From an uncultured bacterium (GTDB lineage Bacteria > Schekmanbacteria > GWA2-38-11 > J061), in NCBI GenBank assembly GCA_964549305.1, contig CAZJVM010000045.1:1-20921 (forward strand): DNA of 20,921 nt, in the 5' to 3' direction. The notes under the pieces were generated by a model. It was not told the origin of the DNA and made no database searches. It saw nothing but the letters and a program-made list of their open reading frames with translations. Both the position numbers and the translations under genes were made by a program. This document shows positions 1,659 to 10,305 of this stretch, in pieces; positions within the stretch are counted from its first letter, which is position 1; the number at the start of each line of letters is the position of its first letter.

Positions 1659-2120
1659 ATGATTGAGAAAAATGGCGGTAAAAACAAATCCAATGACTTT
1701 GTCCTGAAAATAATTATCTTCTTTACCATAGTAATAGCTTCAACAACCCCATTTATCATATTTTATTTAGTGCAGGACGGAAATGCAAGATGCGAAAACT
1801 GTTTTATCGAAAGTATAGGCATTAATGGAATGACTGCCATAATAAAAATAGACGATGATATTGAAAAAGATGCTTATTTTTTAGCCGGCGACAAAATAAG
1901 CGTAACGCCTTTTGAGTCGAATGAGAAGAATACATCATTGATTGGGGTCGTTATAAATAAAAAGTATATGGAAGAACCGGTGGAAGAAAACTCAACAAAA
2001 GCAAAATCTTTTTGTATTTCCGTCAAGATTGATGAAAACCGCTATAAATCCCTTCGTATTGGTGAAAGAGTAATCATATGCAAAGCGGACACATTCAGGC
2101 CTTTGAGAAGTTTCTTCTGA
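1659..2120 (+). CDS. Hypothetical protein, single N-terminal TM anchor plus probable beta-rich extracytoplasmic domain
   Basis: 153-aa ORF; basic N-terminus, then hydrophobic FVLKIIIFFTIVIASTTPFIIFYLV; it is the main ORF filling this gap. Confidence 0.7.
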   Translation: MIEKNGGKNKSNDFVLKIIIFFTIVIASTTPFIIFYLVQDGNARCENCFIESIGINGMTAIIKIDDDIEKDAYFLAGDKISVTPFESNEKNTSLIGVVINKKYMEEPVEENSTKAKSFCISVKIDENRYKSLRIGERVIICKADTFRPLRSFF

Positions 2121-2142: not shown

Positions 2143-2172
2143 AAAAAGGGGCGCTTTTTCAAGCACCCCCTT
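2143..2172 (-). terminator. Rho-independent terminator (minus strand)
   Basis: Minus-strand RNA AAGGGGGUGCUU-GAAA-AAGCGCCCCUUUUU: GC-rich stem with G-U wobbles, GNRA tetraloop and U-tract. On the plus strand the wobbles become A-C mismatches, which favours minus orientation. Confidence 0.85.
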
Positions 2173-2370
2173 AGGCAGGAGTCAGGAACCAATCTCACTT
2201 CTTTACTACCAATAGTCATCTACGGGGAAAACATCACCTGCCACTATTTGCAGACAGGAGACAACCTCAACTCTTCATTTCTCGGCTATCATCATTTCTC
2301 GTCAGCGGTTTGCTCGGTCTCATCATCAGGAATATCATCATCAACTAACGGTTGCCATCTGACTGCTGTC
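2143..2370 (-). ncRNA. Candidate sigma-54-dependent small RNA (~230 nt), family unknown
   Basis: Bounded by a sigma-54 promoter (2380-2396) and a terminator (2143-2172) in the same orientation. No convincing ORF between them; internal repeated motifs. Confidence 0.6.
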
Positions 2371-2379
2371 TATAATATA

Positions 2380-2396
2380 TGCATAAATCGTGCCAA
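2380..2396 (-). promoter_or_regulatory. Sigma-54 (RpoN) -24/-12 promoter
   Basis: Minus strand TTGGCACGATTTATGCA against consensus TGGCACG-N4-TTGCW; exact GG-N10-GC spacing; intergenic. Predicted +1 near 2369-2370. Confidence 0.8.
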
Positions 2397-2420
2397 AAAA
2401 ATGAATTATTTATGGAATAT

Positions 2421-2433
2421 TAAATTATTGAAA
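2421..2433 (-). promoter_or_regulatory. IHF-like binding site
   Basis: Minus strand TTTCAATAATTTA against WATCAANNNNTTR (1 mismatch), about 30-40 bp upstream of the -24 element, the usual IHF position in sigma-54 promoters. Confidence 0.55.
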
Positions 2434-2488
2434 TATAAGGAATAAATAAGATGGGAGAAAATGAGTGTTTTAAGAAAAGGGGACATAA

Positions 2489-2505
2489 ATGAGAAAAATT
2501 CTCAT
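2489..2505. promoter_or_regulatory. Perfect inverted repeat; candidate enhancer-binding-protein site (UAS), or hairpin after coaBC
   Basis: ATGAGAA-AAA-TTCTCAT, flanked by ACAT...ATGT; about 120-135 bp upstream of the predicted sigma-54 start. Confidence 0.5.
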
Positions 2506-7731: not shown

Positions 7732-7853
7732 TACGAGGTTGCCTTTAGGTAGTTTTAATTTTAAAGGGTGTTAATTTCTTCGGCTGTTGAAGTTGATATA
7801 TTGTCATATTGAACTAATATATTTATATGCGGCAGGAGGGGAACGGGAAAAAT

Positions 7854-8279
7854 ATGAGCGAAAAATTTTACCAAATTATCGATCACACAGCTGACACGGG
7901 GTTTGAAGTTAGGGCGGAGAACAAAAAGGAATTGTTTACCCGCTCGGCTTACGCCCTCACCGATTTTATGGTTGATTTAAAAAGTATAGATGAAAAAGAA
8001 GAAATAAATGTTTCTTTATGCGACAGCATCGATATGGAGTCTCTTTTTTTAGCCTGGCTTGGTGAAATCCTTTACCTTTTTGATACAAGGGGGTTTCTTA
8101 TTTCCAAAGTTAATAAAATAAGTTTTCGCGGCAATGAAGCAAATGCCCTGTTTGCAGGCGAGAAATATGATGCGTCAAGACATAGTGTAAAAACGATATT
8201 TAAATCCGCCACATATCACAATTTGAAAGTTGCGAAAGAAGGCAATGAATGGATTGCCCGCGTTATACTGGACGTTTAA
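7854..8279 (+). CDS. Archease (RtcB cofactor)
   Basis: N-terminal DHTAD, C-terminal KSATYH and terminal ILDV; directly upstream of rtcB. Alternative ATG at 7827. Confidence 0.93.
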   Translation: MSEKFYQIIDHTADTGFEVRAENKKELFTRSAYALTDFMVDLKSIDEKEEINVSLCDSIDMESLFLAWLGEILYLFDTRGFLISKVNKISFRGNEANALFAGEKYDASRHSVKTIFKSATYHNLKVAKEGNEWIARVILDV

Positions 8280-8330
8280 TATTCATTAACTTTTCCTGAT
8301 TATTATCTTTCTTTAGGGAGATAAGTCTCT

Positions 8331-9776
8331 ATGAAGCAGAATAACCTTGAACGGATTTCGGAAACCAAATGGAGAATTGGGCGTCAGGGAAATATGAATG
8401 TGGACGGGATTGTCTATTCCGGCGCGTCAATGATTGAAGATGTTTTAAAGGATGAAGCGTTAACGCAGGTGTCCAATGTGGCGTCACTTCCCGGCATTCT
8501 GAAGGCATCCTTCGGGATGCCCGATATCCATCGGGGGTACGGTTTCCCGATCGGCGGTGTTGCCGCTTTTGACATCGATTCGGGCGTAGTCTCTCCGGGG
8601 GGCGTGGGATATGACATTAACTGCGGCGTGCGTCTTTTAAGGACAAACCTTTCACGCGATGAAATTCAATCCCGCCTCAAAGAATTGGCGGCAATCCTCT
8701 TTAAAGAAATACCATCGGGAATAGGTTCGAAGAGGCAGGACTTAAAGCTCAAAGGAGGAGACTTAAAGAAAGTCCTGAAAAAAGGGGCAAGATGGGCCGT
8801 TGAAAATTCTTTCGGTTATAATTCCGACGCCCAATGCATTGAAGACGGCGGTATGATGAAAAATGCCGAACCCGAACTTGTGAGCGCGAGAGCCCTTGAA
8901 AGAGGGCATAATCAGCTTGGCACGTTGGGTTCAGGAAACCATTTTATAGAGGTGGGTTATGTTGATGAAATATATGATGAAAAAGCCGCGGAAATATTCG
9001 GAATTTCCCGGGATTCGGTTACCGTTATGATTCATTCCGGCTCAAGGGGGCTCGGTTATCAGGTTTGTGATGATTACATAAAGGTTATGCGGAAGGCGAC
9101 GGGTAAATACGGGATAAAAATAGAGGACAGACAGCTTTGCTCGGCACCTGTAAAATCCGGGGAAGGAAGAAATTATCTATCCGCGATGGCTTGTGCTGCA
9201 AATTATGCGTTTGCAAACAGACAGATTATGTCACATTTTGTAAGAGAGGTGTTTAAGAAATTTTATAGTATTTCTGATTCAATGCTCGGTATGACTCTTG
9301 TCTATGATGTAGCTCACAACATTGCTAAAATTGAAAAACATTCAGTAGATAAAAAAATCAGGGAGGTATGTGTGCACAGAAAGGGTGCCACAAGAGCATT
9401 TCCCGCAAGCCACGGCGATGTGCCGGAAAAATATGCCAACGCGGGACAACCTGTCCTGATTCCCGGAGATATGGGCACCTGCTCTTTTGTGCTTAAGGGA
9501 ACCGTGAAAGCTATGGATGAAACTTTCGGAAGCACCTGCCACGGCGCGGGAAGGGTTTTGAGCAGAAACGAGGCAAAAAGACGGGGACGGGGAAGGCGCA
9601 TAGATGAAGAGCTTGAAAAGAAAGGAATTGTAGTCATTGCCGCAGGTAGAAACACGCTTCTCGAAGAGATGCCCCCGGCATATAAGGATATATCCGAAGT
9701 CGTAGATGTTGTCCATAAGAGCGGTATAAGTTTGAAAGTTGCGAAACTGCGTCCTCTTGCAGTTATTAAAGGCTAA
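8331..9776 (+). CDS. rtcB: RNA-splicing/repair ligase RtcB (long, archaeal/eukaryotic-like type)
   Basis: MPDIHxGYGFPIGGV, GVGYDINCGVR, LGTLGSGNHF, HSGSRG, DVAHN, VHRKGAT, PGDMG, STCHGAGR (guanylylated His) and terminal IKG; 481 aa; GGGAGA RBS. Confidence 0.97.
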   Translation: MKQNNLERISETKWRIGRQGNMNVDGIVYSGASMIEDVLKDEALTQVSNVASLPGILKASFGMPDIHRGYGFPIGGVAAFDIDSGVVSPGGVGYDINCGVRLLRTNLSRDEIQSRLKELAAILFKEIPSGIGSKRQDLKLKGGDLKKVLKKGARWAVENSFGYNSDAQCIEDGGMMKNAEPELVSARALERGHNQLGTLGSGNHFIEVGYVDEIYDEKAAEIFGISRDSVTVMIHSGSRGLGYQVCDDYIKVMRKATGKYGIKIEDRQLCSAPVKSGEGRNYLSAMACAANYAFANRQIMSHFVREVFKKFYSISDSMLGMTLVYDVAHNIAKIEKHSVDKKIREVCVHRKGATRAFPASHGDVPEKYANAGQPVLIPGDMGTCSFVLKGTVKAMDETFGSTCHGAGRVLSRNEAKRRGRGRRIDEELEKKGIVVIAAGRNTLLEEMPPAYKDISEVVDVVHKSGISLKVAKLRPLAVIKG

Positions 9777-9795
9777 CCTTTTGGGAGGTATTTTT

Positions 9796-10305
9796 ATGGC
9801 TAGAAGCGGACAATACCCCGGAAAGTCCTACAGAAAAAACGACCACTTGCCCGGCGACCCGTATATGAACGAAAAGTTAAGTTCCGGCAAGGTAGTATGC
9901 CCTCGCTGTTACTCTTTTTACATTAACAAGCGATGGCATAAAGATGATAAGAAGCTAAATAATCTTTTAAAAGATAAAGAATTTACACATTCGCTTTGCC
10001 CTGCCTGCAAAAAAACAAAAGATAAATTTCCTCAGGGAATCGTCACCCTCAGGGGGCAATTCTTCGCCGAGCATCGCGATGAAATATTGAGACTTGTCGC
10101 CAATGAAGAAAAAAAAGCAGTTGCCTTCAACCCTCTGGACAGAATAATAGAAATAAAGAACAACGGGAGTCAGGCGGTAATAAGCACAACCAGCGAAAAG
10201 CTTGCTCAAAGAATAGGAAAGGCGGTAAAAAGGGCGTGCAACGGAACAATAAGATATTCATGGTCTGTGGAGAACAAAATGGCAAGGGTTTGTTGGGAAA
10301 GATAA
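9796..10305 (+). CDS. BCAM0308-family / NMD3-like Zn-finger protein
   Basis: DPY, CPRC...RW, LCPAC...D.FP.G.VTL.G, NPL.RI, TT.EKLAQRIG.A, RV.WER. Start re-assigned to ATG 9796 with GGGAGG at 9783-9788. Confidence 0.8.
   Translation: MARSGQYPGKSYRKNDHLPGDPYMNEKLSSGKVVCPRCYSFYINKRWHKDDKKLNNLLKDKEFTHSLCPACKKTKDKFPQGIVTLRGQFFAEHRDEILRLVANEEKKAVAFNPLDRIIEIKNNGSQAVISTTSEKLAQRIGKAVKRACNGTIRYSWSVENKMARVCWER

Follow-up and report, generated by a model that had tools for sequence, protein, structure and literature searches.

Contig C45 of an uncultured Schekmanbacteria genome (G000; 2.94 Mb, 41% G+C, rated 100% complete) carries, on its minus strand just behind the coaBC gene, an intergenic stretch with a sigma-54-type promoter at one end and a terminator at the other, and the question it raises is whether this stretch is the gene of a regulatory RNA. 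The whole contig (20,921 nt) was analysed and is referred to below as the window. An earlier note, made from the letters of the window, had read positions 2143–2505 as a signal-controlled regulatory RNA of an unrecognised family. The analysis lends support to this reading in that no Rfam family matches, the genome encodes the sigma-54 machinery, the promoter, the IHF-like site and the dyad are conserved in both other genomes of the family, the predicted fold is accompanied by compensatory changes, and no conserved open reading frame (ORF) was found. Judged from these sequence features, a genuine regulatory RNA is probably transcribed from the stretch in its own right. Read along the minus strand, the order of elements is the end of coaBC, a dyad, an IHF-like site, a -24/-12 promoter, about 227 nt of RNA and a terminator. 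The control region and the predicted transcript consist of the following elements:

2513–2481, minus strand: candidate upstream activator site, a 33-bp dyad of the form TGTCA-N4-TGAGA-N5-TCTCA-N4-TGTCC, conserved in three genomes

2433–2421, minus strand: IHF-like site TTTCAATAATTTA between the dyad and the promoter, with 1 mismatch to the pattern WATCARNNNNTTR

2396–2380, minus strand: -24/-12 promoter TTGGCACGATTTATGCA, with GG and GC spacing and one departure from TGGCAC-N5-TTGCW

2369–2143, minus strand: predicted transcript of about 227 nt, its start taken from promoter geometry and its end from the U-tract of the terminator

The palindrome (2489–2505), the IHF-like site (2421–2433, one mismatch) and the sigma-54 promoter (2396–2380, GG and GC in -24/-12 spacing) described in the earlier note are all present, and the palindrome (ATGAGAATTTTTCTCAT, 2505–2489 on the minus strand) turned out to be the core of the larger dyad at 2513–2481. 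In full, the dyad reads TGTCA-CATA-TGAGA-ATTTT-TCTCA-TTTA-TGTCC; its first base lies 7 nt past the coaBC stop codon (2520–2522), and it spans -144 to -112 relative to the predicted start, with its centre near -128. The start was placed at A2369, 12 nt after the C of the -12 GC; a conserved AYAGCA block begins at this base, and the first pair of helix P1 (described below) follows 2 nt later. The transcribed part is, as had been noted, more GC-rich than the region ahead of it, with 46.3% G+C in the 227 nt vs 25.3% in 2370–2519.

Genome-wide comparison places the promoter among the better sigma-54 sites of G000. The pattern TGGCAY-N5-[TAC]TGCW has 72 matches in the genome vs 5 for a reversed control, and at 48 of the 71 matches other than the one considered here an ORF of at least 100 aa begins within 120 nt, whereas the present promoter has no coding gene behind it. 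Scored with a weight matrix trained on these 48 promoters, the promoter ranks 8th of 130 sites above 12 bits, and no sigma-70-like match was found upstream of the RNA on its strand. A check of the genome for rpoN and ihfAB revealed rpoN (209 bits) and three HU/IHF-family genes, along with about 16 enhancer-binding proteins (15 above 234 bits, one at 138 bits). When the idealised dyad was compared with the whole G000 genome, its own site showed mismatches at 2 of 25 specified bases, the next best site at 4, and ten sites at 5. One dyad-like site with 5 mismatches, near an activator gene on contig C42, was rejected, as it lies inside a histidine kinase coding region.

Sigma-54 use is very heavy for a genome of 2.9 Mb (e.g., C30:2689, C127:1869 and C14:33409), and many activator genes adjoin a sigma-54 promoter. 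Two other promoters with the same core as the one upstream of the RNA, on contigs C83 and C155, were considered and rejected, having different upstream sites and leading to protein genes. The promoter at C83:385 (minus strand, locus L010) has an identical core, TTGGCACGATTTATGCATAT; a different element, ACTRTCGGATTTTTGAACACTT, is repeated twice upstream of it, and its first ATG comes only after a leader of about 270 nt, with the end of the contig nearby. Either a long leader under regulation or another non-coding unit may be present at C83.

The phylum collection comprised five species genomes, of which G000, G001 (same genus as G000) and G002 (another genus) belong to one family, and G003 and G004 (the latter only 70% complete) to a sister family. 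A search for the unit in these relatives showed that it recurs in both other genomes of the family, so that it is found directly downstream of coaBC in 3/3 family genomes. In G001, whose CoaBC protein is 73% identical, the DNA of the unit is 68% identical over 385 nt and the RNA is about 70% identical; blocks without any change are found at all three control elements (dyad, IHF-like site and promoter), at the very start of the RNA, at several positions inside it and around its terminator. In G002 (CoaBC 62% identical), BLAST with the RNA finds nothing; coaBC is followed there by a sigma-54 promoter, ACAGCA, a GAUGA-rich stretch, GGCAGG...CCUGCC and a terminator, and the gene beyond the RNA is a different one, with the coaBC–RNA linkage retained. 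The homologous RNAs measure 233 nt in G001 and 247 nt in G002. Promoter, IHF-like site and dyad are kept in both sequence and position: TGGCAY begins at -26 in all three genomes, the dyad starts at -144 in G000, -144 in G001 and -146 in G002, and the IHF-like site, on the same strand throughout, lies at -64, -64 and -65 (with 1, 1 and 0 mismatches to its pattern), while the spacers between these elements are not conserved.

The RNA itself is predicted to form the following structures:

2350–2367, minus strand: 5' strand of helix P1 (RNA nt 3–20), pairing with 2249–2266 in each single-sequence fold

2249–2266, minus strand: 3' strand of helix P1 (RNA nt 104–121), pairing with the 5' strand

2237–2242, minus strand: 5' strand of helix P2, GGCAGG (RNA nt 128–133), pairing with CCUGCC at 2174–2179 in all single-sequence folds

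2172–2143, minus strand: intrinsic terminator, with a hairpin at 2172–2145 (12 pairs, -19.7 kcal/mol), a GAAA loop and U5

Single-sequence folds of the 227-, 233- and 247-nt RNAs gave the same P1/P2/terminator layout each time, with P2 enclosing about 57 nt. Since MAFFT misaligned G002, a covariance model was built from G000 and G001 and the G002 sequence was then aligned to it; in a search of 37 kb, this model recovered the G002 copy over its full length (28 bits, E 1.8e-6). Of the 93 cells of the model-fitted alignment, 95.7% are paired, and double-sided changes affect 11 of the 31 pairs: five in P1 (16 pairs in two segments), six in the terminator (nine modelled pairs) and none in P2. None of 500 shuffles was as good, a shuffle control that is not to be taken as a probability, and when the partners were slid by 1–3 columns, only 34.6–54.7% of cells paired, with 0–2 double-sided changes. 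RNAalifold recovered the same four helices, with 32 pairs, 11 of them compensatory. A predicted four-helix fold is shared by the three genomes. The GC stem with GAAA loop and U-tract that had been noticed at 2172–2143 is part of this fold; only on the minus strand does the hairpin have a U-tract behind it, and a terminator scan returned 3 sites vs 0.8 ± 1.1 in shuffles. As a further observation, the 5' strand of P1 (AGCAGUCAG, within 2369–2350) can also pair with the conserved 3' block CUGACUCCUG (2192–2174), and the centroid fold shows this pairing. In the folding model, competition for the P1 5' strand (2266–2249 vs 2192–2174) may give the RNA two conformations.

The unit appears to have a narrow range. 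BLAST of the RNA against the five phylum genomes returned, beyond itself, only G001 and short promoter look-alikes, and the genome-wide model search of these genomes gave no further credible copy; each genome with the RNA has it once. In G003 and G004, a less strict pattern produced only chance matches with 1 mismatch, around which the unfiltered model reached at best 15.3 and 13.3 bits. Among 82 coaBC loci (80 from other phyla, plus G003 and G004), the model search gave no full-length hit and 12 weak partial ones, nearly all to the purine-rich loop. The strict promoter-plus-5'-end pattern matched no stretch in the genome contigs collection, and its one match in the metagenome contigs collection (L019) was rejected as an unrelated sigma-54 promoter before a protein gene; the phylum's own records may be left out of both collections. 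On this evidence, the unit seems restricted to a single family.

In the sister family, the slot after coaBC (loci L018:1074–1445, plus strand, and L017, minus strand from 885) is occupied in G003 and G004 by a convergent sigma-54 promoter with an upstream inverted repeat of the TGTCGGAAATTTAGACA type; in G003 this promoter is followed by an ORF of 85 aa. The C83 promoter of G000 has a similar repeat on its upstream side.

Several points weigh against an RNA gene of this kind. Initiation at 2369 and termination at 2143 are predictions from sequence; the comparison draws on three sequences, two of them from one genus, with pair counts taken on a model-fitted alignment; and P2, being invariant in all three, offers no covariation test. 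The folding energy of the whole RNA is ordinary (z-score -1.55; 17 of 200 shuffles were equally stable). Neither the sister family (0/2 genomes, one of them 70% complete) nor the 80 coaBC loci from other phyla yielded a copy of the unit, and the genome-wide model search missed the G002 copy at first look. The unremarkable folding energy would also fit a chance assembly of motifs in a functionless intergenic region, as would the A+T-rich upstream region, where IHF-like and palindromic strings are common (five matches to the IHF pattern with at most 1 mismatch within 205 nt of G000). Such an assembly is strongly disfavoured and extremely unlikely: the elements are conserved in position and sequence although the neighbouring protein is only 25% identical between G000 and G001, the helices show compensatory changes, and the promoter ranks high.

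The coding potential of the stretch was evaluated next to its fold. The first AUG of the RNA was confirmed by translation to give MATVS and a stop, as had been stated, and MATVS is lost in G001. Conserved ORFs were not found: those of at least 8 aa in the three RNAs share no peptide, the peptides differing in all three genomes. The only ORF of at least 50 aa starts at +149, lacks a Shine-Dalgarno sequence, extends past the terminator into the convergent gene and is not conserved. It could still be proposed that the interval encodes a very small protein and that the RNA serves as an mRNA, alone or besides a second function. Frame 1, acidic where it crosses the GAU repeats, gives short acidic peptides in all three genomes, the three loops contain 21 AUG vs 6.2 expected in mononucleotide shuffles, and one of the three indels between G000 and G001 measures 3 nt. 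However, the acidic frame of G000 has no ATG, GTG or TTG before its stop, and a stop codon lies just ahead of the start site; the other two indels are of 1 nt each; third positions show no concentration of the differences between G000 and G001; and Shine-Dalgarno-like sequences number 0 in the loops vs about 79% of the rough gene calls, in which start picking favoured such motifs. A protein-coding role is thus very unlikely, and the non-coding reading is retained below.

The neighbouring genes bear on two further explanations:

3746–2520, minus strand: coaBC ORF, with DFP and Flavoprotein domains and its stop codon at 2520–2522

1659–2120, plus strand: convergent gene encoding 153 aa, with a homologue in G001

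1348–194, minus strand: acyl-CoA dehydrogenase gene, the next gene on the minus strand, about 800 nt beyond the RNA unit

Attenuators typically consist of a promoter, a structured RNA and a terminator in this order, and the RNA could in principle be a riboswitch-like 5' leader of a downstream minus-strand gene. The next such gene, however, begins about 800 nt on, with a real gene in the opposite direction between; the downstream neighbourhood differs in G002; and no riboswitch family matches. This makes a leader function exceedingly improbable. That the gene next to the RNA is convergent had already been noted, and the homologue in G001 (25% identity, E 4e-11) indicates that it is a real gene. 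Its 153-aa product has an N-terminal membrane anchor and belongs to no Pfam family; its language-model features resemble those of small LcnD/HlyD-like proteins with high similarity, which is a lead only and taxonomically uninformative.

The genes upstream raise a more substantial alternative, in which the conserved stretch is chiefly the 3' untranslated region of an accC-accB-coaBC transcript, with a stabilising function or giving rise to an RNA by processing, and the sigma-54 site is minor or silent. coaBC lies on the same strand and ends at 2520; no terminator was found between it and the RNA unit, and the only terminator-like site before 2172 is a weak one inside the RNA (2256–2235). In 3/3 genomes the RNA follows coaBC, including the one with another downstream neighbour. 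Release of RNAs from 3' ends has precedents, e.g., GlnZ, an RpoN-dependent RNA that originates from the 3' end of glnA (PMC9731577). The candidate resembles GlnZ in being located at the 3' end of a metabolic gene on the same strand and in sharing its terminator. GlnZ is not known to have a promoter of its own after the coding region. In contrast, a full promoter with candidate activator and IHF-like sites lies between the coaBC stop codon and the candidate RNA, and this complete promoter argues for independent transcription. Moreover, the promoter boxes, the IHF-like site and the dyad have stayed at fixed distances across family-level divergence while the spacers drifted, and they would be superfluous for a mere 3' end; the conserved block and P1 also begin within 2 nt of the start predicted from the promoter, not at the coaBC stop codon. 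A chiefly 3'-untranslated role is therefore improbable. With no separate terminator for coaBC, its read-through transcripts should have the RNA at their 3' ends as well, and the stretch should thus double as the 3' end of these transcripts, a point absent from the earlier note. The two explanations are not mutually exclusive, a 3'-end origin being a partial rival to an independently transcribed RNA gene. None of the sequencing runs listed as containing the stretch is on record as RNA; in Logan contigs of four runs, matched at 80% likeness, 2064–2293 is uncovered, and no variant was seen in the RNA. Neither finding bears on expression.

As for known RNA families, no family of Rfam 15 reached its gathering score anywhere in the window, and at E up to 10 the window matched only C/D-box snoRNA models, at 10.6–20.3 bits against cut-offs of 35–54. 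These scores are drawn by UGAUGA and CUGA strings. A box C/D guide RNA was rejected: the scores are below cut-off, an L7Ae-family gene, as a source of the kink-turn protein, is lacking, UGAUGA and CUGA do not have the required C-guide-D'/C'-guide-D spacing, and the organism is a sigma-54 bacterium. The 3' end of the G001 copy alone matched mmgR/suhB (RF00519; 20.8 bits, E 0.039, cut-off 41), a candidate rejected in view of its score and of the absence of the match from G000 and G002; the G002 copy gave only noise against Rfam. The RNA probably belongs to an undescribed family, a claim that refers to Rfam, given that a word-based literature search cannot show whether the sequence is in print. 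With regard to RNA-binding proteins, Hfq, ProQ/FinO, RRM and L7Ae-family proteins were not found in the G000 genome, in which CsrA is encoded.

The body of the RNA contains a purine-rich loop and, further downstream, two blocks shared within the genus:

2267–2349, minus strand: P1-closed purine-rich loop (RNA nt 21–103), GAUGA/GAGA-rich and GG-free

2223–2235, minus strand: block GAUGUUUUCCCCG (RNA nt 135–147), identical in G000 and G001, a candidate C-rich pairing segment

2174–2192, minus strand: block UUGGUUCCUGACUCCUGCC (RNA nt 178–196), identical in G000 and G001, its last six bases forming the 3' strand of P2

The P1-closed loops of the three genomes measure 83, 86 and 98 nt and are 64–69% purine. 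GAUGA occurs in them 14 times (5, 5 and 4) vs 6.95 ± 1.98 in dinucleotide shuffles, none of 300 being as high, and UGAUGA 10 times vs 3.4 in the same kind of shuffles. Compared with mononucleotide shuffles, GA is in excess (54 vs 28.5), GG occurs once (vs 18.9 ± 3.1), and GGA, of which 7.5 ± 2.2 copies would be expected, is absent from the loops and from the whole G000 RNA. The loop of G002 is alike in composition and cannot be aligned with the other two; the make-up of the loop, rather than its sequence, is conserved. Being almost without GG, the loop has no CsrA-type GGA sites, and a sponge for CsrA of the CsrB/RsmZ type was rejected on this ground. From its composition, the loop is predicted to be incapable of pairing with C-rich parts of the same RNA and to be free of both CsrA sites and ribosome-binding sites.

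In the 3' domain, G002 keeps GUUACUGAC and CCUGCC of the UUGGUUCCUGACUCCUGCC block. Pairing was evaluated against 2530 translation-start regions, which are rough predictions. The GAUGUUUUCCCCG block pairs at -16 kcal/mol or lower with 216 of them vs 49–114 for 10 shuffles, whereas the 654 pairings of the 3' block at nt 168–196 fall within the range of its shuffles (278–678). The 10-mers exactly complementary to the conserved blocks are scattered over the genome without pattern.

Taken together with sigma-54 biology and with the examples of GlmY and CrcZ, the anatomy of the locus suggests how the RNA might be switched on. RNA polymerase with sigma-54 would sit at the -24/-12 promoter, which would fire only when a signal-activated enhancer-binding protein, one of about 16, occupies the 33-bp dyad; a protein of the IHF/HU type at -64 would bend the DNA and bring activator and polymerase together, and transcription would end at the intrinsic terminator. 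As the comparison of the three genomes shows, the RNA has two domains: in the first, P1 joins the 5' end to nt 104–121 and holds out the GAUGA loop with its 4–5 motifs, and the second, closed by P2, carries C/U-rich single-stranded blocks in the genus of G000 and G001. Protein binding at the dyad and at the IHF-like site is proposed from the conservation of these two sequence features. The single dyad site points to a dedicated activator.

If the RNA is real, two roles may be considered, and both may hold. With somewhat less than an even chance, the GA-repeat loop would serve, when the signal is on, as a titration platform for an RNA-binding factor or for a pyrimidine-rich RNA. The constant across the family is a scaffolded, unstructured repeat platform, a hallmark of titrating RNAs, which favours a decoy role. 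The other role, in which the 3' domain pairs with ribosome-binding sites of mRNAs without Hfq, is possible and on the whole rather unlikely. A more specific form of the decoy proposal, according to which the GG-free GAUGA loop is a new platform titrating an undescribed regulator that reads GA or GAUGA instead of GGA or A-rich motifs, is to be regarded as doubtful. These mechanistic proposals are weakened by several observations. No factor that binds GAUGA is known to us. The GAUGUUUUCCCCG block is absent from G002, and its excess of matches could reflect a C-run meeting G-rich Shine-Dalgarno sequences. On the activator side, the dyad occurs only once in the G000 genome, and the window contains no gene for an enhancer-binding protein.

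Three features that define sigma-54-controlled small RNAs were found at the locus as sequence features: a -24/-12 promoter (GG-N10-GC) in a genome with rpoN, a dyad about 100–150 bp upstream with a bending site between, and a predicted transcript with no coding gene and a terminator at its end. A first comparison is with CrcZ and CrcY of Pseudomonas, for which PMC6296734 describes a sigma-54 promoter with sites for the activator CbrB upstream and an IHF site between. The candidate likewise would be a non-coding RNA gene with a sigma-54 promoter, an upstream activator site and an IHF site between, and, like CrcZ, it repeats a short purine-rich motif in its unpaired parts, which in CrcZ serves titration and in the candidate may do so. 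CrcZ and CrcY sequester Crc/Hfq, and the CrcZ motif is A-rich. Unlike CrcZ, the candidate has a GAUGA/GA-rich, GG-free motif and no Rfam match, consists of about 227 nt with a P1-closed loop, and belongs to a genome without Hfq.

GlmY of Enterobacteriaceae, a small decoy RNA for RapZ, is similar to the candidate in promoter logic. For GlmY, PMC4152352 reports a sigma-54 promoter combined with IHF sites and with activator sites at a distance of over 100 bp on the upstream side, the GlrR sites being three TGTC-N10-GACA motifs. The candidate differs in having one 33-bp dyad of a different layout, no overlapping sigma-70 promoter that could be found, no Rfam match, and an activator gene that does not adjoin the RNA gene.

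The Qrr RNAs of Vibrio are presented in PMC10162802 as small RNAs controlled by LuxO and sigma-54 and ending in a terminator. Sigma-54/activator control and the terminator are shared with the candidate, and pairing with mRNA starts, its alternative mechanism, would be of the Qrr kind. Qrr RNAs are much shorter than the candidate and need Hfq. The candidate, in contrast, is encoded in a genome without Hfq, in a single copy per genome, and has no Rfam match. Finally, CsrB, RsmY and RsmZ resemble the candidate in displaying repeated short motifs on a structured scaffold, and CsrA is encoded in G000, as mentioned above; their defining GGA motifs are missing from the candidate. The class of small RNAs controlled by sigma-54, an activator and IHF is thus known; no resemblance in sequence or structure between the candidate and the members of this class could be detected, and its effector motif is possibly new.

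Small RNAs activated through sigma-54 tie one sensed signal to post-transcriptional control, and the known cases (GlmY, CrcZ and Qrr) come nearly all from Proteobacteria. The candidate would be a well-delimited example from a barely sampled, sigma-54-heavy phylum (about 16 activators and 50 promoters in 2.9 Mb). In a phylum without the usual RNA chaperones, the GA-repeat loop offers a concrete bait for the global RNA-binding factor, and the RNA is easily testable, its promoter, start, end and fold all being predicted to the base. If the GAUGA loop did titrate a regulator of its own, a new RNA–protein regulatory pair, the functional counterpart of CsrB–CsrA or CrcZ–Hfq/Crc, would be present in a phylum with five sequenced species; if the RNA were just another base-pairing RNA, it would be an ordinary addition to the catalogue.

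Elsewhere in the window (7827–10305, plus strand), genes for archease and for the RNA ligase RtcB lie in a row with a small ORF that weakly matches the NMD3 family; the row constitutes an RNA-repair cassette. Unlike the enterobacterial RtcR-controlled operon, it has no sigma-54 pattern match ahead of it.

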